This document shows positions 47,813 to 57,501 of a stretch of 64,000 bases of DNA, in pieces (position 1 is the first letter of the stretch; each line of letters starts with the position of its first letter). The notes under the pieces were generated by a model, which had not been told where the DNA came from, searched no databases, and saw only the letters and a list, made by a program, of their open reading frames with translations. Made by a program: the position numbers and the translations under genes. Source of the DNA: Candidatus Aenigmatarchaeota archaeon (GTDB taxonomy: Archaea > Aenigmatarchaeota > Aenigmatarchaeia > PWEA01); NCBI GenBank assembly GCA_046539305.1, contig JBKHHE010000001.1:13150-77149 (forward strand). Reading direction: 5' to 3'.

Positions 47813-47825
47813 AAACATGATAAAC

Positions 47826-48230
47826 ATGGATTATGAGGCTATTCAAGATTTCTTTGAGGACCCCACAATGGAGAAATATGAAAATATCCTAAATCAGGGA
47901 ATTCCACCTGAAACAGTAACTCAAGAGATAAGGAAGTATAACGATGCTCTGGCTTGTGCCAAACAGGCTGAACTGATAGAACAGGAAGCGGGACATGAAA
48001 AGTGGAGGAATAGGGGAAGTTTGTTTGAAGATGTTTTAAGACGTGCATGGCCTCTCGCAGGCGATGCAGTTACTGAAGGAATTGATTGCGCCGGTGACGC
48101 AGGCAAAAAGATAGCTTACCATACGGGTGAAATAGGCGAAGAAGCTGGAAGAACAGTAGGTAAGTTTGGAAAAGGCATGGGTCATGCTGCCAGTGGAATA
48201 GCTGAAGGTGTCCAAGAGGCAGAAAATTAA
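47826..48230 (+). CDS. Hypothetical protein (low-GC gene)
   Basis: Lies behind the shared 26-nt promoter element. ATG 47826 chosen by spacing analogy with 12590 (the ORF track starts at 47817). Confidence 0.5.
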   Translation: MDYEAIQDFFEDPTMEKYENILNQGIPPETVTQEIRKYNDALACAKQAELIEQEAGHEKWRNRGSLFEDVLRRAWPLAGDAVTEGIDCAGDAGKKIAYHTGEIGEEAGRTVGKFGKGMGHAASGIAEGVQEAEN

Positions 48231-48293
48231 CCCATATTTCCTTCAATTTCAAGAAGCCGGTTGTACTTGGAAGTTCTCTCACCTCTGGCAGGC

Positions 48294-48322
48294 GCGCCTG
48301 CTTTTATGCCGTAGGCTCCCAG
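48294..48322. repeat. 29-nt exact copy of enolase 3' coding sequence (49601-49629)
   Basis: Direct comparison. A diverged alignment extends to the stop codons (48227 / 49537). Confidence 0.9.
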
Positions 48323-48341
48323 AGCTCTGGAGGTGAGGGCG

Positions 48342-48394: not shown

Positions 48395-48491
48395 CGCTAG
48401 CATAGGTAACAAAGGTGTTGTCCGGTATAAAATTCTTCCGGTCCCGGAAAAAGTTAAATAAATGAATTGAGAGAAGGTGTGTAGTGATGAG

Positions 48492-49526
48492 ATGTCCGAG
48501 GAAACTAAAAACAGAAAAACGGACCATATAAAAATCTGTGTGGAGAAGGACGTCGAGTTCAACAAGAAAAGTACACTTCTCGGGGAGGTAGTCCTGCCCA
48601 AGACGGTCCCGGACATGGACGCCAAAGACGTGGATCCAAGCACAGCTTTCCTGGGCAAGAAAATCTCGGCACCGGTCTTCGTGAACTCTATAACCGGGGG
48701 CGAGGAGAGAGCTGAAAAGATAAACAAGGACATAGCCGCGGCCTGCGAGGAGCTGGGACTTGGGATGGCCCTGGGCAGCCAGAGGGCGATGCTGGAGGAC
48801 AGATCGCTGGCCTACACATACGACGTGAGGGAGGAACACGATCCCGCCTTCCTCCTTGGAAATATAGGGATAGCACAGCTCGGGGAGTACACGGTCGAGG
48901 AACTGGAGTGGCTTGTCGAGAAGATAAACGGTGACGGCCTTTTCGTACATATAAATCCCGCGCAGGAGGCTGTCCAGCCGGAGGGAGACACCGACTTCAG
49001 CGGAGCCATGAAAAGGCTGGAAGAAATTGCCAAAAAGATGGATTATCCCGTAATTGCGAAACAGGTCGGAGAGGGAATATCCAGGAAAACGGCACAGAAA
49101 CTGAGTGAGATGAATCTGTACGGCGTCGACGTCGGAGGAGCCGGTGGGTCCGACTGGACCAAGATCGAGCAGCTGAGATCTGAGGACAACTACGGGGAGA
49201 CCTTCGAAAACTGGGGAATACCCACTGCACAGTCCCTGATAGATGTTCTGGAAACAGTTACCGGAGGAAAGGTAACTGCAACAGGAGGGATAAGGAACGG
49301 ACTACAAGTGGCAAAGTCTCTGGCTCTGGGAGCGGATGCCGCCGGACTCGCGCTTCCTGCATTAAAGGCTCAACAGAAGGAAGGAAAGGAAGGGGTCAAA
49401 GCGCTCCTTGAAAGGATGGTAGAGGAGTTGAAAATAGCTATGTTCCTCACAGACTCCGGCAGCGTAGAAGAGCTGAGGTCTCTGGATCCGAAGATATCAC
49501 CAAAACTGAGGAGCAGAATCGGATAG
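48492..49526 (+). CDS. fni: Isopentenyl-diphosphate delta-isomerase, type 2 (FMN-dependent)
   Basis: KTDHIKICVEKDVEF, LGSQRAML and TGGIRNG motifs. Confidence 0.9.
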   Translation: MSEETKNRKTDHIKICVEKDVEFNKKSTLLGEVVLPKTVPDMDAKDVDPSTAFLGKKISAPVFVNSITGGEERAEKINKDIAAACEELGLGMALGSQRAMLEDRSLAYTYDVREEHDPAFLLGNIGIAQLGEYTVEELEWLVEKINGDGLFVHINPAQEAVQPEGDTDFSGAMKRLEEIAKKMDYPVIAKQVGEGISRKTAQKLSEMNLYGVDVGGAGGSDWTKIEQLRSEDNYGETFENWGIPTAQSLIDVLETVTGGKVTATGGIRNGLQVAKSLALGADAAGLALPALKAQQKEGKEGVKALLERMVEELKIAMFLTDSGSVEELRSLDPKISPKLRSRIG

Positions 49527-49536
49527 CTCTAACAAG

Positions 49537-50769
49537 TTAAAGTTCTTCTTCAACCCTGAGAAGCCTGTTATACTTCGCGGTCCTTTCTCCCCTGGCAGGT
49601 GCGCCTGCTTTTATGCCGTAGGCTCCCAGGGCCACGGCCAGGTCCGATATAAAAGGATCGGTAGTCTCGCCGCTCCGGTGGGAAACTATCACTTTCCAGT
49701 CGTTCGACTTCGCCAGTTTGGCAGCTTCCATGGCCTCGGTCAGCGTACCTATCTGATTGACCTTGAGAAGTAGGGTGTCGCAAGCTTCCTTTTCTATCGC
49801 CTTCTCTATCCTGCCCGGATTCGTCACCAAAAGATCGTCCCCCACGACTCTCGCCTCCGTTCCTTCGTTCAACGAGGCAAACGCCTCGAAGTCCTCCTCG
49901 TCAAAGGGATCCTCTATAGAAAGGATAGGGTAGTTTTCGATTAGCTCTAGCCAGAAATCCTCCAGCTGTTCCTGATTCATAACTCTGTTGTCTATGGCGT
50001 AGTCCCCGTCTTCGTAGAACTGGGAGGCTGCGGCGTCCATCGCCAGCTTGACATCCTTTCCAGGCCTGTACCCGGCCACCTCCGTAGCTTCTATCAGAAG
50101 GTCCAGGGCGTCCTCCGTTTTTGTGAGGGAGGGAGCGAAACCTCCCTCGTCGCCAACGTTCACCGCCTCCTTTCCGTATCGGCTTTCGAGAATTCCTTCC
50201 AGGCCGTGGTAAATCTCCGCCGTCGCCTGGATATTTTTACTGAAGTCCTCGAAGAGTGGTACAATCATGAACTCCTGTACTGCGAGGTCGTTGCCGGCGT
50301 GCTCACCACCGTTGATTACGTTCAGAAAGGGTCTCGGAATTTCCATTTTTCCGCCAGAAGAAAACTTTTCATGAAGGAGCTTGTAGAGCTCTTTATCCTT
50401 CTCATCAGCAGCAGCTCTGGCCGCTGCTAGAGAAACCGAAAGAATCGCATTCGCCCCTAGGGTGCTTTTGTCTTCCGTCCCGTCCAGGTCTATCATCCTT
50501 TCGTCCAGCTCCTCCGGGTTCTGACAGTCCGCACCTTCCAGCTCCTCTTTTATCTCGTTCTCCACCACAGACACGGCCTTCTGCACGCCCTTGCCGCCGT
50601 ATCTTCTGCCGCCATCGCGCAGCTCCAGCGCCTCGTTTTCTCCCGTAGAAGCTCCCGAAGGAACGGCGGCCTTGCCACAGCTCTCTTCGGTTATCACTTC
50701 CGTCTCCACCGTCGGGTCGCCCCTTGAATCAAGAATTTCTCTGGCTTTGATATCCTTTATAGCCGACAT
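49537..50769 (-). CDS. eno: Enolase
   Basis: MSAIKDIKAREILDSRGDPTVE...SHRSGET. ATG 50769 with TTTATAAAAAA 22-32 nt upstream. Confidence 0.95.
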   Translation of the reverse strand: MSAIKDIKAREILDSRGDPTVETEVITEESCGKAAVPSGASTGENEALELRDGGRRYGGKGVQKAVSVVENEIKEELEGADCQNPEELDERMIDLDGTEDKSTLGANAILSVSLAAARAAADEKDKELYKLLHEKFSSGGKMEIPRPFLNVINGGEHAGNDLAVQEFMIVPLFEDFSKNIQATAEIYHGLEGILESRYGKEAVNVGDEGGFAPSLTKTEDALDLLIEATEVAGYRPGKDVKLAMDAAASQFYEDGDYAIDNRVMNQEQLEDFWLELIENYPILSIEDPFDEEDFEAFASLNEGTEARVVGDDLLVTNPGRIEKAIEKEACDTLLLKVNQIGTLTEAMEAAKLAKSNDWKVIVSHRSGETTDPFISDLAVALGAYGIKAGAPARGERTAKYNRLLRVEEEL

Positions 50770-52217: not shown

Positions 52218-52376
52218 TCAAGCAAACCTTTCCGCAATTTCAAGCACCTCTTCTGCCCTTGCTTCGTCTATGTCAGACCCTGAAACAGAGTCCTCGTACT
52301 TACTTTCCTCCAACAGAAGCTCCGCAGTCGAAAGCTTCTCCCTGGACTTTTCCATCAAATCCTCTATCTCACTCAT
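52218..52376 (-). pseudogene. Internally deleted HEPN remnant (52 aa)
   Basis: MSEIEDLMEKSREKLSTAELLLEESKYEDSVSGSDIDEARAEEVLEIAERFA. The first and last HEPN helices are joined and the middle ~65 aa is missing. Not in ORF track. Confidence 0.5.
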
Positions 52377-52423: not shown

Positions 52424-52696
52424 CTATACTTTCTCTTCGAAGTCATCTTTTTCGAAAACTCTAACAGAAAACCTCAGGTCTGTTTCCTGCATCCACTCCT
52501 CAGCCAGCTCCTGAACTTTTTTCCTGTCATCCTTCTCCTTACTCTCAAGAATCACAGCTATATCTATGTCGCTCCCAGGAACCTCCTCGTCACGTGCGTA
52601 GGAGCCATACAGCATTACCCTATCAGTTCTGGTCCTGAACAACGGCCTAACATCTTCTGCAAACTCCTTCACGTGCTTCTGCCTGGCCACCAACAT
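52424..52696 (-). CDS. Minimal nucleotidyltransferase (MNT-type)
   Basis: VMLYGSYARDEEVPGSDIDIAVIL. Confidence 0.8.
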   Translation of the reverse strand: MLVARQKHVKEFAEDVRPLFRTRTDRVMLYGSYARDEEVPGSDIDIAVILESKEKDDRKKVQELAEEWMQETDLRFSVRVFEKDDFEEKV

Positions 52697-52738: not shown

Positions 52739-54106
52739 CTATGCTTCCCTGAAGGCCTTCTTCTCGTAGAGGAAGTCAGAAATATAACCTTCGTGGGGTT
52801 CCTTTATGTCTATGTCACAGCTCGGGACATCAACGTAAACTTTCTCCACAGTGGGATTCATAAGCGCATTCTCAATCTTTTCCTCATCATTAGTCAACAT
52901 AGTCAGGGTAAGGGAATCACTCAAGATACCTTCAGAGTAATCTGTAACGGAGCTGTACTGGAAGGGAAATTCGTTGAAGAGTGGATGACTTTCTCCCTGG
53001 GGAATGTATGTAACGGTAGGCTTGAGATAAGTAGTGCCATCTTTCTTTACCAGTCTCTCGGAACCTTCATCATAGGTAAAATCGACAGCCCCCCCTTCCA
53101 AACTTTCTTCAAGTAGCTTGTTGAATTTCTCGGCCTCTTCCATCGGCATGGCAGGTATTTGAGCGTCTTCTTCATATGGAGAGGTGGGTTCAATATCTCT
53201 AACTTCCTCGGCAAGTTCCTCGGCAAAGTCCTTTACTCCGTCTTCAACCACGACCTGGCTTATATTGATGCATCCTCTACCACCATCTTTCATCATAGAA
53301 TTTTTGGCCAGATCCAAAGCCATATCTTCACCGACAAAGTCCTCGTCTATGTAGATCTTGCTATTTCCAGGTCCAAAGGCCTTTATATCGGGATTACCTT
53401 GATATCTTTCCTTTATATCAGGCCCACCAAAAACTATGCCCTTATCTGTCTCGTTCACAAGTGAATTTCCAAACTCTCTATCACCGGGAAGAAAATGTAA
53501 TGAATTTTCAGGAAGACCTGCTTCGTAAAGTGAATCGATGACCCGTTTCGGTGTCAATGGCTCATCGTTTGAGGGTCTAACCATAGTAGGATATTTCATT
53601 CCCACAGCAGACAGCCAAAGAGAATTAACCGCCGGGTGATTCGAAGGTGTTACCACACCCAGATTTTTTCCTTCGGGTACATAGACGAAGTTTCCTTCAG
53701 GAGAAAAACCATCGTAAAGGCTGAGATCACTATCTGGTGTCTGTGCCCTCACCGTCTCTTCTATATTTCTCATGGCACCTTCCAACATTTTTCCTGCTCT
53801 CTTTACATCAGATATCGGAAGCCCTGTTAATGAAGTGACTTTTTGGCAGTATTCGTCGTAATCTATGTCACCAGTATTTGAGGAAAAATAATCCGCCGCC
53901 TCTTCTATAGTTTCAAGTAACTCTTCCTGAGGCATCTCCCTCAAAGCCTCAAAGCCCTCTTTCCTCGATTGGTCAAGATCACCACTGTAAAGGATAACAG
54001 AAGAAGTCTGGGATGCCTCGCCGATCTCCTGGCCCTTGAAGTCGGTCAGAGGGACCTTGTCCAGCGACTCGTACTCCTCTCCACCCCGGTTGAGATGAAT
54101 ATCCAT
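52739..54106 (-). CDS. ALDH-superfamily enzyme lacking the ELGG general-base motif (acylating/LuxC-like?)
   Basis: TPSNHP, IVFGGP and GGRGC (catalytic Cys), but AFGPGNSK where ELGG is expected. ATG 54106 lies 1 nt after the upstream stop. Confidence 0.7.
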   Translation of the reverse strand: MDIHLNRGGEEYESLDKVPLTDFKGQEIGEASQTSSVILYSGDLDQSRKEGFEALREMPQEELLETIEEAADYFSSNTGDIDYDEYCQKVTSLTGLPISDVKRAGKMLEGAMRNIEETVRAQTPDSDLSLYDGFSPEGNFVYVPEGKNLGVVTPSNHPAVNSLWLSAVGMKYPTMVRPSNDEPLTPKRVIDSLYEAGLPENSLHFLPGDREFGNSLVNETDKGIVFGGPDIKERYQGNPDIKAFGPGNSKIYIDEDFVGEDMALDLAKNSMMKDGGRGCINISQVVVEDGVKDFAEELAEEVRDIEPTSPYEEDAQIPAMPMEEAEKFNKLLEESLEGGAVDFTYDEGSERLVKKDGTTYLKPTVTYIPQGESHPLFNEFPFQYSSVTDYSEGILSDSLTLTMLTNDEEKIENALMNPTVEKVYVDVPSCDIDIKEPHEGYISDFLYEKKAFREA

Positions 54107-54107
54107 C

Positions 54108-55163
54108 TCAGTATACACCACCCTTGTTCTTTTCTTCTCTAGACTTACTGGGCACAATGTCCTTTACACAAGGAAGATCTGTATCAAGATAGCTAGGTGA
54201 TTCTACCATAACTGCTTCATCTTCCTCAAGATAGGCAGGCATAAGGAAATTTTCTGTTACTTTACTAGTAGCAAGGGTACCCTTTTCACCGTAATCACAT
54301 AATTTTCCATCGTCATCATAGACCTCCAATCTCCTTGTAGGCCCGGCAGACAGGTAAATTACCTCGTAGTCATCAGTATCCAAAAGTTGAATTCCTGTAA
54401 ATTCCGTTAATGCTGTTCCAAATCCACCTGTAAAAGGCATATCATCATAAATTTCTTCCTGGAAGACCCTGTTTTGTTCTTGGGAAAGAGGAGCACCAGC
54501 CTGGATAATCCCATCTAAATCAAGCTTATCAACATCCATCTTCCCTGCCATCTCTTCAAGAATATCTGCTGTAGTAAAGGTGTAACCAACATCCTGACTT
54601 TTGACAAGATCCTTGACCTGTTTTCCAATATGTTTTTTATACCTCTCAAGAGAATCCTGCATTCCTTCTCTCCCGAATTTTTTGAGAATCCGAGGGTCAA
54701 GATCGATTCCAAGTATATTTCCACCTCTCGATTCAGCAAGATCTCTCGCATAAGCAGCTATCGTGTGAGGAGGAAACTGAGGACCTATCCAAAGCATATC
54801 TTCATCTCTTGGAATCCCTGCGTTATCGAGGTATTCATTAAACCTCTCTATATTGCTGAACCAATCTTCTTTGGGCAAAGGAGCATTTTTTGGAGACCCT
54901 GTAGTTCCTCCACTCTCCCCAACAGCATAAATTTCCTCAAGTTTGCTTTCTGGAACGAAGTTCTTGTATGAGGTATTTCTCATAGCTTTAGCAAAATGCT
55001 CCGATTTTTCGGGATTATTGAGGCCCAGAACATCGACCATGTCTCTCCAAGACTCGATATCCCTGATAGCAGTTTTGACACCTTCTTCAAGATCGCCATA
55101 CTCTTCAGCTACTTTCCTCCAGTACGGTGTCTCTCTGAGATGAGTTTCAACGGAATTTTTCAA
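54108..55163 (-). CDS. PaaK/F390-synthetase/LuxE-like adenylate-forming enzyme (351 aa, no C-terminal lid)
   Basis: ANL P-loop GESGGTTGSPK. Size and architecture resemble acyl-protein synthetase/PaaK N-domain. Confidence 0.65.
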   Translation of the reverse strand: MKNSVETHLRETPYWRKVAEEYGDLEEGVKTAIRDIESWRDMVDVLGLNNPEKSEHFAKAMRNTSYKNFVPESKLEEIYAVGESGGTTGSPKNAPLPKEDWFSNIERFNEYLDNAGIPRDEDMLWIGPQFPPHTIAAYARDLAESRGGNILGIDLDPRILKKFGREGMQDSLERYKKHIGKQVKDLVKSQDVGYTFTTADILEEMAGKMDVDKLDLDGIIQAGAPLSQEQNRVFQEEIYDDMPFTGGFGTALTEFTGIQLLDTDDYEVIYLSAGPTRRLEVYDDDGKLCDYGEKGTLATSKVTENFLMPAYLEEDEAVMVESPSYLDTDLPCVKDIVPSKSREEKNKGGVY

Positions 55164-55207
55164 TTCTTCTTCAGTTGGTTCACGATATGGATAATTAATC
55201 TTATCAC

Positions 55208-56740
55208 CTATTCTGTTTGGAGTTTGTCAGAAATTACAAGATTTGTTGCCGTAATATTATTATACTGAGCAGGCTGGTTTCTCCTTCCGCCAATCTCACC
55301 CGCCGTATAGAACCCAAAGAAGGGAACTTCAGGATAAGACTGTTTGACCTTATCAATGGCCTTTTCAACATCTTCTTCGAGAAGGATTCTCCTGATTCCA
55401 CATGTAGAGAAAAGTACCAGGGCAGGATCAAAGTTTCTATCCTCAACAGCATTGTTGATAGATTTCTTCAAAGCATTTACTGTTTTCTCAGCATTAAAAC
55501 TCGAAATCATAACAGACTGGCCTTCACCATACTTAAAGGAACCCTGTAAAAACTCCTTATTCTGTGGGTTTAGTAGAGCTACCTTTGGATAAATATTTTG
55601 TGACGTATCAAAAACTGACACCGGCCTCTGCATAGTATACTTTCCAATATCATCCAATAGATCCTCCTTATCAACATCTATCACTTCTGAATATCTACTA
55701 AGAGCTGGTTTATTGTCAAGCTCCTTAATGACTCTACCCTGACGCCCTACCTCTGTTATTAGAGTCATATCCGTAGTTTTTTCAAATCCATGCTCCAAAC
55801 CATAAGAAAAGTATAGTTCTGAAACAACAAAAGCAACTACAGCACCTGACTTAGCATATTTACCATTAGCAAAGACGTAATTTGGTCCTTTCTTCTGTGT
55901 AAAATAGTTTTCCATTGGAATCGAAGCCGATCCACCTATAATCGGTATATGGGGGCCAAGTACTTCTTTTATGCCATCTAAAAACTCTATCTCCGCCCCG
56001 GGAACAGGTTTATCGTCTTTATCATAGTAAAAGCCTCCTGGGAAAGTCATTACAAAGTAGGGTGGATTTTTAATTATATCAGAGAAATCCTTTTTCGTAG
56101 ACCTCATATACTGAGAAGTGGCATGAACTGATCTCTCTACATTGGCCTCATCTACGACTTCTTCCGCTGCATTTTTCGCCTTCTTCTTTGGTTCACTTCG
56201 ATAGTCTTCAATTAGAGTTGGAGAAAAATGAAGATACTTTGAGTTTAGTGAAAGTACCTCTATGGTACCCCGAGAAAACCCTAATATTGAGTTCAACTCA
56301 CTGTCCGATGTACATCCCATCCAGTCATCGCCGAGTATCTTGTTGAATCCCTTAGTTACCTTTTCGACCTGGTCGTTGTACTCCGAGGAAACGAAAACTA
56401 GGGAAAAGGTAGGATTCTCGCCGCTTGCGGCCTGGTTGGCGGCCTGTTTTGCCGCGGACTGTGCTGCCTTGAAGCCATCACTGAGATCGGATACTCCTAT
56501 TCCAACCTGTATGTTTTCTCCTTCGTACTGTGAATCCATCTCGTGAATTCCAGAATATTCCTCAAGATAATATATTTTGGCTGAACCTACTTTTTTCTTC
56601 TTTACTTCTTCCTCTTCAACGAGATCCTTGATCTTAGAAGAGACAGTATTTCGATGTAAATCGCTCTCGTCGGCCATATCAGAAATTGATAGGCCGGCTG
56701 GGTGTTCCTCAAGAGTTTTCAAAATCTTCTCCTTGGACAT
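55208..56740 (-). CDS. wHTH + FIST_N/FIST_C sensor-regulator
   Basis: N-terminal wHTH (LSISDMADESDLHRNTVSSKIKDLVEE). FIST-like body ending FFGFYTAGEIGG. Confidence 0.7.
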   Translation of the reverse strand: MSKEKILKTLEEHPAGLSISDMADESDLHRNTVSSKIKDLVEEEEVKKKKVGSAKIYYLEEYSGIHEMDSQYEGENIQVGIGVSDLSDGFKAAQSAAKQAANQAASGENPTFSLVFVSSEYNDQVEKVTKGFNKILGDDWMGCTSDSELNSILGFSRGTIEVLSLNSKYLHFSPTLIEDYRSEPKKKAKNAAEEVVDEANVERSVHATSQYMRSTKKDFSDIIKNPPYFVMTFPGGFYYDKDDKPVPGAEIEFLDGIKEVLGPHIPIIGGSASIPMENYFTQKKGPNYVFANGKYAKSGAVVAFVVSELYFSYGLEHGFEKTTDMTLITEVGRQGRVIKELDNKPALSRYSEVIDVDKEDLLDDIGKYTMQRPVSVFDTSQNIYPKVALLNPQNKEFLQGSFKYGEGQSVMISSFNAEKTVNALKKSINNAVEDRNFDPALVLFSTCGIRRILLEEDVEKAIDKVKQSYPEVPFFGFYTAGEIGGRRNQPAQYNNITATNLVISDKLQTE

Positions 56741-56817
56741 CGTTAACTAATTTGTGCATTATTGAACAAAATATTTAAAGGTTTGGATATTCACGAAAAC
56801 GTAGAAAGATCGCGAAT

Positions 56818-57501
56818 TTAAATACTTAGAACTGAAATTCCCTTGTCGTCTATCTCCATAGGAAATTTCTCTTCCTCGAAGTTCGTTCTCCTCATCTTTC
56901 TAACTGCAAGGCTTCTTCCAGAATCAGTTCCCACGAGACTGAAATTGAGCTCAATAACCCCATCCACGAGGTATTCCTCCACACCGAATCTGGTTAGTTT
57001 GTCCTCGCCCTCGGGTGCCTCCGTGGTAAGCACTGCCGTTGTATCGGCCTCCTCTATCGTCCTGACTATCTTGAACAGGTTTTCCCTGACTTTGTACTGG
57101 TCGTCGTAGTAGAGGGAGAGGATTGAAGTTGAGTCCATGGCAAGCCTGTCCACGTCCTGCTTCTCCAGCTCGCTCCTGAACCAGAATAGCTCGTCGCCTT
57201 CTGCAGCTTCAAAGGGATCTTTTTGTCTGAGGACAAGCTGTCCATTTTCCTCGTATTTTTCAAAATCCCAGCCGAAGTCAGAAGCAGAGTCCTTTATTTT
57301 TTCTGGTCTCTCCTCGAAAGTTATGAACATGCAGTTCTCTCCGTTCTGTAGACCTTCCCATATGAACTGTGAGCAGAAAATGGTCTTGCCTGTACCAGCG
57401 GAACCCGTGACGAGGACAGCGTTGTCCTTGACGAAGCCGCCCTCTATTAGGTCGTCGAGACCGGGAATTCCAGTGGATACACGCTCCAGGTTCCGGGGCA
57501 T
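56818..57501 (-). CDS. KaiC/RadA-like single-domain RecA-superfamily ATPase
   Basis: GIPGLDDLIEGGF, Walker A GSAGTGKT, Walker B RLAMDS. Confidence 0.85.
   Translation of the reverse strand: MPRNLERVSTGIPGLDDLIEGGFVKDNAVLVTGSAGTGKTIFCSQFIWEGLQNGENCMFITFEERPEKIKDSASDFGWDFEKYEENGQLVLRQKDPFEAAEGDELFWFRSELEKQDVDRLAMDSTSILSLYYDDQYKVRENLFKIVRTIEEADTTAVLTTEAPEGEDKLTRFGVEEYLVDGVIELNFSLVGTDSGRSLAVRKMRRTNFEEEKFPMEIDDKGISVLSI

Follow-up and report, generated by a model that had tools for sequence, protein, structure and literature searches.

A 64,000-nt stretch of contig JBKHHE010000001.1 (assembly GCA_046539305.1) from a small, symbiotic-type Candidatus Aenigmatarchaeota archaeon, hereafter called the window, carries three consecutive genes on its minus strand. 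They encode a 510-residue protein with a winged helix-turn-helix (wHTH) domain and a FIST module (positions 55208–56740), a short adenylating enzyme of the ANL type (54108–55199), and an aldehyde dehydrogenase (ALDH)-like protein of 455 residues (52739–54106). With moderate confidence, we read these genes as an operon for a wHTH-FIST sensor-regulator and an EhpF/EhpG-type (GriC/GriD-type) carboxylate reductase that has two components and depends on ATP and NAD(P)H. The enzyme pair satisfies every sequence and structure test that we applied for the EhpF/EhpG type and fails those for LuxE, LuxC, PaaK, and hydrolytic ALDH. The first-pass annotation of this DNA had suggested a carboxylate activation and reduction module, and the homology to EhpF and EhpG supports that suggestion. 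Its PaaK/LuxE-like and LuxC-like labels hold as a distant analogy; as statements of family membership they fail, with no match to the corresponding hidden Markov models (HMMs). All three genes are called in the metagenome-assembled genome (MAG) GCA_046540015.1, which is labelled Candidatus Aenigmatarchaeota.

As judged from its sequence and predicted fold, the adenylating protein is an EhpF-type ANL enzyme and a full-length homolog of EhpF. The phosphate-binding loop GESGGTTGSPK, already pointed out in the first-pass annotation, occupies residues 82–92 of the 351-residue protein, and seven of its eleven positions are invariant among seven archaeal members. In a phmmer search against the PDB, EhpF (3l2k/3hgu) was the only significant match (E = 5.5e-23), with residues 40–342 of the query aligned to residues 51–356 of EhpF. 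The AlphaFold2 model of the protein (pLDDT 81.6) has its best PDB matches in 3hgu, 3hgv, and 3l2k, with TM values of 0.73–0.75. The next structural matches are ClxA, AjiA1, NatL2, and PaaK, all of which are approximately 80 residues longer, and the PaaK-family structures match the model with lower target coverage than EhpF. EhpF consists of 366 residues and the window protein of 351–363, as compared with approximately 430 in PaaK. A profile built from the seven archaeal sequences retrieved 485 clusters, 76 of them at E ≤ 1e-30, from 1.84 billion representatives. Because nearly all of these clusters are 340–390 residues long, the short form is the norm of the family, and the missing C-terminal lid noted earlier is thus a trait of a short EhpF-type family. 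EhpF itself is said to have been described by Bera et al. in 2010 as an ANL enzyme without the C-terminal domain.

Pfam PF00501 (AMP-binding) scores 23.8 bits on the window protein, below its cut-off of 29.9, and 28 bits on EhpF itself. The LuxE model (PF04443) left the window protein unmatched at E ≤ 0.1 and eight relatives, including EhpF, unmatched at E ≤ 1, and models of the PaaK and F390-synthetase families gave no usable match among the window proteins. Neither Pfam nor NCBIfam holds a model for the EhpF-like family, and no dedicated NCBIfam model stands behind the RefSeq name "arylcarboxylate reductase". Assignment as a full-length PaaK (phenylacetate-CoA ligase) was rejected, since no PaaK model matched, the PF00501 score was sub-threshold, and the protein is approximately 80 residues too short. 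The lack of an identical database protein had also prompted the idea of a pseudogene, which we rejected as well; the source MAG has it as a called gene, and the protein keeps 59 of the 59 family-invariant columns. EhpF-like domains also occur in nature fused to a class-III aminotransferase, to a zinc alcohol dehydrogenase, and to an alpha/beta hydrolase (P0134, P0157, P0247). The aminotransferase and alcohol dehydrogenase fusions fit an aldehyde product because both enzyme classes commonly act on aldehydes.

The ALDH-like protein is, by sequence, a homolog of EhpG with the Cys and Asn residues in place and without the general-base Glu. BLASTP aligns it over nearly its full length with EhpG of Pantoea (26% identity, E = 3e-34), and the product of the gene that follows the EhpF-like gene on a Halalkalicoccus jeotgali plasmid is 30% identical (E = 3e-66). 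Its match to PF00171 is weak (61 bits against a cut-off of 23), its scores for all NCBIfam ALDH equivalogs are far under their cut-offs, and solved canonical ALDHs align only partially (best E = 2e-9). PF00171 was its sole match, and the LuxC model (PF05893) left it unmatched. All 54 family members likewise match PF00171 weakly, and 16 of the 54 also match LuxC at E ≤ 1e-3. Among the models that the first-pass annotation had named for comparison, FIST was thus matched, PF00171 was matched weakly, and LuxE and LuxC were not.

In the HMMER alignment of this protein to betaine aldehyde dehydrogenase, FGPGNSK falls on LELGGKNPN and has nothing acidic where the Glu would be, GGRGC falls on GQVC, and PSNHP falls on PWNYP. 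The two features remarked on earlier, a catalytic Cys in GGRGC and FGPGNSK in place of ELGG, are therefore both present. A canonical hydrolytic ALDH was rejected based on the weak HMM match and the absence of the general-base Glu268 of ELGG. Invariant or nearly so across the 54 family members are Asn156 (oxyanion hole), G245-P-G-x-S-K at the ELGG position, G-R-G-Cys279, E379/F382, and a C-terminal P-H-E-G (EPHEG in the window protein). By position, E379/F382 look like the EEIFGP motif. EhpG has the same conserved features, among them GPGxSK, the Cys, and PH(E/D)GY. In the AlphaFold2 model (pLDDT 93.4) the ALDH fold is complete, and its structural matches have TM values of approximately 0.8 at 14–18% identity. 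This fold and the conserved E379/F382 suggest that the protein binds NAD(P)H.

The adenylating and ALDH-like genes are separated by 1 nt at the junction TAC TGA G ATG, with the stop codon at 54110–54108 and the ATG at 54106. An alternative TTG at 54157 would extend the ALDH-like protein to 472 residues; the ATG is favoured by the ortholog alignment and by an NCBI protein of 455 residues (P0007) that is 100% identical. The adenylating gene is annotated from a TTG at 55163, which gives the 351-residue form. An AGGTGA Shine-Dalgarno-like motif (55209–55204) lies 4 nt before an ATT at 55199–55197, and in the related loci L001 and L004 the homologous spot reads AGGTGA, 5 nt, and TTG or ATG. Starting at the ATT, the N-terminus matches the orthologs residue for residue over a protein of 363 residues. 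ATT 55199 is probably a rare AUU start codon of this gene, as far as can be judged from this alignment. The gap between the FIST and adenylating genes is 8–44 nt, depending on the start codon, and this spacing, together with the 1-nt gap that follows, suggests that the three genes form one transcript.

A BRE/TATA-like element, AAACCTTTAAATATTT (56769–56784, minus strand), lies approximately 30–45 nt 5′ of the FIST start codon and is probably the promoter of the operon. TATA-like boxes were read by eye, a sigma-70 scan being unsuited since the host is an archaeon. The AAACCTTTAAA motif in this element also occurs 5′ of Pus10 in the other orientation. The FIST promoter region is 100% identical to that of L001. 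The preceding gene (56818–57501, minus strand) encodes a KaiC-like single-domain ATPase (PF06745, 5.7e-64) and has its own TATA-like element, TTATAAAA, approximately 30 nt upstream.

As the first-pass annotation had proposed for 55208–56740, Pfam finds both a wHTH and a FIST module in the 510-residue protein: FIST_N (PF08495) at 1.9e-26 (93.6 bits), FIST_C (PF10442) at 3e-12 (47.2 bits), and an N-terminal wHTH matched by HTH_IclR at 1.3e-4. This domain content makes it a candidate one-component sensor-regulator. A PDB sequence search with the protein gave no match. We found approximately 35 ortholog clusters of wHTH-FIST proteins of about 510 residues, and every cluster with a named source is labelled Aenigmatarchaeota or Aenigmarchaeota. 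The nearest bacterial FIST relatives are stand-alone FIST proteins encoded between a response regulator and a PAS-HisKA kinase on Patescibacteria contigs (L022/L023), a NosP-like arrangement; the locus of this candidate phyla radiation (CPR) homolog has two-component genes and no adenylating or ALDH gene.

The gene order KaiC, wHTH-FIST, ALDH-superfamily gene is conserved in seven distinct Aenigmatarchaeota loci with varied flanks, including the window, and one or two KaiC genes stand directly upstream of wHTH-FIST in all seven (window, L001, L004, L005, L017, L018, and L019). The closest of these, L001 (MAG GCA_046540935.1), is syntenic across the whole neighbourhood, in the order peptidase A24, UppS, DUF655, Rpb4, L21e, Pus10, KaiC, FIST, ANL, ALDH, MNT, HEPN, apgM, and enolase. 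L004 and L005 keep KaiC-FIST-ANL-ALDH within different flanks, so that four of the seven loci carry the EhpF/EhpG-like pair. In L017, two KaiC genes and wHTH-FIST are followed by a weakly ANL-like gene (420 residues) and an ALDH-superfamily gene; L018 has two KaiC genes, wHTH-FIST, no middle gene, and a canonical-type ALDH; and L019 has KaiC, wHTH-FIST, a 442-residue protein without a detectable relative, and a LuxC-type reductase. The ALDHs of L017–L019 are canonical or LuxC-type, not EhpG-type.

FIST-ANL-ALDH trios also recur in other archaeal lineages. In the archaeal loci L013 and L015, a divergently transcribed FIST gene without HTH adjoins the EhpF-like/EhpG-like pair, and KaiC is absent from both. 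In most of the loci that showed both enzyme genes, the EhpG-like one adjoins its EhpF-like partner, often with an overlap of 1 nt; this holds for Pantoea, Halalkalicoccus, Streptomyces sp. Mg1, S. cattleya, Baekduia, and every DPANN locus seen. On a Helarchaeota contig, the two genes lie approximately 2 kb apart and FIST is absent; the one exception to the pairing is a Streptomyces EhpF-like copy, which precedes a polyketide synthase gene with no ALDH. The GTDB scan, which used narrow back-translated patterns, gave three loci, and the phyletic breadth is therefore a lower bound. A 2.3-kb contig (L010) of a MAG labelled Hadarchaeota encodes ANL and ALDH proteins 45% and 75% identical to those of the window; because this identity is far closer than expected across phyla, the contig is probably mis-binned Aenigmatarchaeota DNA.

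In the reaction that we propose, the EhpF-like protein would adenylate a carboxylic acid to give acyl-AMP and pyrophosphate. Because it lacks the C-terminal domain, it should be unable to carry out the usual thioester-forming second half-reaction. The acyl group would then move to Cys279 of the ALDH-like partner, whose gene appears translationally coupled 1 nt downstream, and NAD(P)H would reduce the thioester and release the aldehyde. Loss of the general-base Glu would guard the thioester from hydrolysis back to the acid. We infer these steps, including the direction of the reaction and the acyl transfer, from homology and from the example of GriC/GriD. The wHTH-FIST protein would bind a small molecule, which may be the acid or the aldehyde, and control transcription from the TATA-like element before its own gene; its domain content and conserved adjacency suggest that it regulates these genes. 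The KaiC-like ATPase encoded before it may modulate it, a speculation based on analogy with NosP-type FIST proteins and their histidine kinases; no KaiC-FIST link turned up in our literature search. The first-pass annotation regarded such a module as unexpected in an archaeon with isoprenoid lipids. That concern does not apply, because the characterised relatives act on aryl carboxylates and not on fatty acids.

Several observations weigh against this proposal. The identities of the two proteins to EhpF and EhpG are only 23–27%, and the ALDH cofactor motif (FGGPDIK) is not conserved at its second Gly. The activity of EhpF/EhpG on phenazine-1,6-dicarboxylate was reportedly proposed by Bera et al. 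in 2010 from structure and genetics, and our literature search on EhpF/EhpG biochemistry and on the name "arylcarboxylate reductase" gave nothing useful. The likeness of GriC/GriD to the window pair is drawn from its description in the literature. No aldehyde-consuming enzyme (alcohol dehydrogenase or aminotransferase) adjoins the pair. Because FIST proteins without HTH occur in the related trios L013 and L015, FIST need not be a transcription factor for these genes. In L017–L019 the place of the adenylating gene is either empty or taken by a gene with little or no relation to it, and because this middle slot varies, the conserved core may be KaiC-FIST-ALDH and not the reductase pair.

Part of this evidence also bears on other assignments. 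An oxidative direction, in which the ALDH-like protein makes the Cys thioester from an aldehyde and the ANL protein runs backwards (acyl-enzyme, AMP, and pyrophosphate to acid and ATP), is unlikely in our judgement, and so is its corollary that a fermentative DPANN cell would gain substrate-level phosphorylation or aldehyde detoxification. An enzyme that must spare its thioester would also be served by the missing general base, and the lack of an adjoining aldehyde consumer agrees with this direction, as does the description of Aenigmarchaeota as fermenters without a respiratory chain (PMC8407114). However, every relative for which there is evidence (GriC/GriD, and EhpF/EhpG by genetics) goes from acid to aldehyde, and the aminotransferase and alcohol dehydrogenase fusions fit aldehyde production. 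Conversion of a thioester to an acyl-adenylate is also energetically uphill. We give a low probability, too, to a stand-alone ligase that forms an amide, an ester, or a CoA thioester, as in ClxA, NatL2, and the PaaK family, with the ALDH-like protein either a CoA-acylating PduP/EutE-like enzyme that uses free acyl-CoA or unrelated. The next-best structural matches (ClxA, AjiA1, NatL2, and PaaK), the Streptomyces copy before a polyketide synthase gene, and the 16 of 54 ALDH-like members that touch the LuxC acyl-CoA reductase model fit such a ligase; the C-terminal domain needed for the PaaK-type second half-reaction is missing across the family, however, and the two genes are tightly and widely linked. 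Also unlikely is the idea that the conserved unit is KaiC, wHTH-FIST, and an ALDH-family enzyme, a signalling pair that controls or uses an aldehyde or redox enzyme, to which the adenylating gene would be an accessory open to exchange; FIST may then be a protein partner of the enzymes and not a transcriptional regulator. The absent middle gene in L018, the different ones in L017 and L019, the HTH-less FIST genes beside the pair in L013 and L015, and the NosP-like setting of the CPR bacterial FIST homolog, next to genes for a response regulator and a histidine kinase, all speak for it. Yet the ALDHs of L017–L019 are of other types, so that these loci may encode different chemistry under the same regulator, and the wHTH fusion argues for DNA binding by the window FIST protein.

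The first-pass annotation had further taken the region to be a horizontally acquired island, based on its low GC content. The dip is real: nowhere in the 64 kb is GC lower than at 52.0–56.5 kb, and only there do nine 1-kb windows in a row stay at 46.4% or less (39.7–46.4%), compared with a mean of 49.2% (standard deviation of 1-kb windows, 3.4%). The 500-nt windows inside the region have 38–45% GC. The flanks had been put at 60% or more, which did not hold; we measured 52–58% on the apgM/enolase side and 46–52% over the KaiC gene. GC content at the third codon position (GC3) is 0.378, 0.338, and 0.444 in the FIST, ANL, and ALDH genes (z = −2.4, −2.9, and −1.6), against a mean of 0.586 (standard deviation 0.086) over 69 open reading frames of the window. 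The first and second positions are ordinary, and it is almost solely at the third that the region deviates. A recently acquired foreign island with a LuxE/LuxC-like module is nevertheless very improbable, even though this dip and the strong divergence of an internal segment from the closest relative, L001, would fit it. The related MAG L001 holds all three genes in full synteny, the arrangement that the first-pass annotation had itself named as speaking against an island; the cluster is kept in seven loci with different flanks; and in L001 and L004 the orthologous clusters likewise have a GC3 below that of the flanking genes, with the same offset. The module proteins are acidic like their neighbours (pI 4.3–5.1), and there is no tRNA or flanking direct repeat at the locus and no integrase among the called neighbour genes. 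The window proteins, moreover, have no LuxE or LuxC match. We conclude from these comparisons that the cluster is ancestral to the Aenigmatarchaeota lineage, and what survives of the horizontal transfer suggested earlier is a homologous allele exchange of approximately 1.9 kb within that lineage.

This exchange is apparent when the window is compared with L001. The amino acid identity is 91% for KaiC, 86% for ALDH, 80% for Pus10, and 75% for enolase, and only 50% for ANL. In the FIST protein, the first approximately 200 residues are 97–100% identical and the C-terminal half is 37–60% identical. At the nucleotide level, the block from 56960 to 56510, which takes in the 3′ end of KaiC, the promoter region between the two genes, and the part that encodes the wHTH, is 95–100% identical and 99–100% identical over most of its length, while the two MAGs are otherwise approximately 70–90% identical around it. 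The segment from approximately 56060 to 54130 (about 1.9 kb), which holds the FIST C-terminal half, the whole ANL gene, and the first ALDH codons, is 53–63% identical, and the identity of the ALDH gene ranges from 68% to 94%. In the divergent part, the window is no closer to L001 than to L004, or than L001 is to L004; in its flanks, the window-L001 identity far exceeds the other two. P0264 is closer to the window than L001 in the FIST C-terminal half and farther in the N-terminal half. This incongruence indicates that the segment was replaced homologously by a divergent allele from within the lineage, and the near-identical block points to a very recent exchange between two populations. It is also in this divergent segment that GC reaches its minimum for the window. 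The ANL protein also evolves faster than its partner ALDH in every other comparison (for example, 45% against 75% identity for L010), so that a high rate and exchange both contribute to its divergence. Taken together, these patterns suggest that the C-terminal half of FIST and the adenylating gene act as a cassette that can be exchanged, and that their homologous exchange diversifies the cluster.

A wider, tentative reading to which we give little weight is that the KaiC-like ATPase and wHTH-FIST form a lineage-wide metabolite-sensing circuit, an archaeal counterpart of NosP-type FIST and its kinase, whose output is an aldehyde-forming or aldehyde-handling cassette. Homologous recombination would then swap the C-terminal half of FIST jointly with the adenylating enzyme, as a matched "ligand sensor + substrate selector" cassette. 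If this is true, symbiont populations could adjust in this way the choice of carboxylate, from the host or the community, that they sense and reduce.

Some features of the neighbourhood deserve mention in their own right. Between the ALDH-like gene and apgM lie an antitoxin-type MNT nucleotidyltransferase gene and, after it, a 52-residue HEPN remnant; the two reading frames occupy 52424–52696 and 52218–52376 on the minus strand. The remnant covers positions 1–29 of the 117 positions of the Pfam HEPN model, and L001 has an intact HEPN protein of 124 residues as well as two extra hypothetical genes between ALDH and MNT; the MNT/HEPN genes look like a decaying toxin-antitoxin pair. Beyond an FMN_dh (type-2 isopentenyl diphosphate isomerase-like) gene at 48477–49526 (plus strand), there is a copy of approximately 110 nt of the enolase 3′ end, approximately 85% identical over the well-aligned core. 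The enolase-end copies at approximately 48230–48340 and 49537–49650 bracket the FMN_dh gene, an arrangement that looks like an insertion scar, and L001 carries RDD and Trm56 genes after enolase in place of FMN_dh. Adjoining this scar is an open reading frame of 137 residues (47817–48230, plus strand) without a Pfam match, which has the lowest GC3 of the window (0.319, z = −3.1).

Two-component carboxylate reductases of the EhpF/EhpG-GriC/GriD type have so far come from a few bacterial secondary-metabolite pathways. New here are the occurrence of the putative pair in a DPANN archaeon among housekeeping genes, its conserved link to FIST, which is extended in Aenigmatarchaeota by a wHTH fusion and a KaiC-like ATPase, and the apparent cassette-like behaviour of the sensor C-terminal half and the adenylating gene. 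Because no dedicated Pfam or NCBIfam model exists, such genes carry no more telling label than "hypothetical protein", "AMP-binding", or "aldehyde dehydrogenase", and DPANN reconstructions read ALDH labels of this kind as acetaldehyde-to-acetate fermentation (e.g. PMC8407114). For this ALDH-like family, whose members lack the general base and have an adenylating enzyme as partner, the fermentation reading is probably wrong. The conserved FIST link is one of the few gene-context clues to a FIST ligand, and the sharp mosaic, with 99–100% identity beside 53–63%, shows cleanly, in natural and uncultured DPANN populations, how an allele within an operon is replaced.

Comparison with known systems places the proposed operon as follows. 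NosP has the FIST_N and FIST_C module in common with the window protein, but the NosP model matches the latter only weakly, at 81 bits, far under its cut-off of 450. A NosP-type FIST pairs with a histidine kinase, whereas the window FIST is fused to a wHTH and has a KaiC-like ATPase as its neighbour. Carboxylic acid reductases with A-T-R domains, such as Nocardia Car, convert an acid to an aldehyde with ATP and NADPH; they use a phosphopantetheine carrier and a reductase of the short-chain dehydrogenase/reductase type, whereas the window pair has no carrier and an ALDH-fold reductase. In LuxE/LuxC, a short ANL-clan enzyme activates the acid with ATP, and the acyl group passes to the Cys of a non-hydrolytic ALDH-superfamily reductase for reduction by NADPH. 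This logic is the same, but the window proteins match neither PF04443 nor PF05893, and LuxE/LuxC is a fatty-acid reductase, whereas the window has no LuxD or luciferase and no pointer to a fatty-acid substrate.

The EhpF/EhpG pair in the D-alanylgriseoluteic acid (phenazine) cluster of Pantoea agglomerans has the same layout as the window pair, namely a short ANL gene followed by an ALDH-family gene (approximately 455–473 residues); ehpG, annotated as "aldehyde dehydrogenase family protein", lies directly downstream of ehpF. That pair belongs to an antibiotic cluster without FIST and KaiC genes, whereas the window pair is linked to both and resides in a housekeeping neighbourhood of an archaeal (DPANN) host. 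The window substrate is surely not phenazine-1,6-dicarboxylate, as no phz genes are present. GriC/GriD of the grixazone pathway of Streptomyces griseus likewise acts in a secondary-metabolite cluster, unlike the window pair. According to PMC10179220, which cites Suzuki et al. 2007, the AMP-binding protein GriC converts 3-amino-4-hydroxybenzoate to its acyl-AMP, from which GriD makes the aldehyde by reduction. This is the same two-protein mechanism that we propose for the Aenigmatarchaeota pair.

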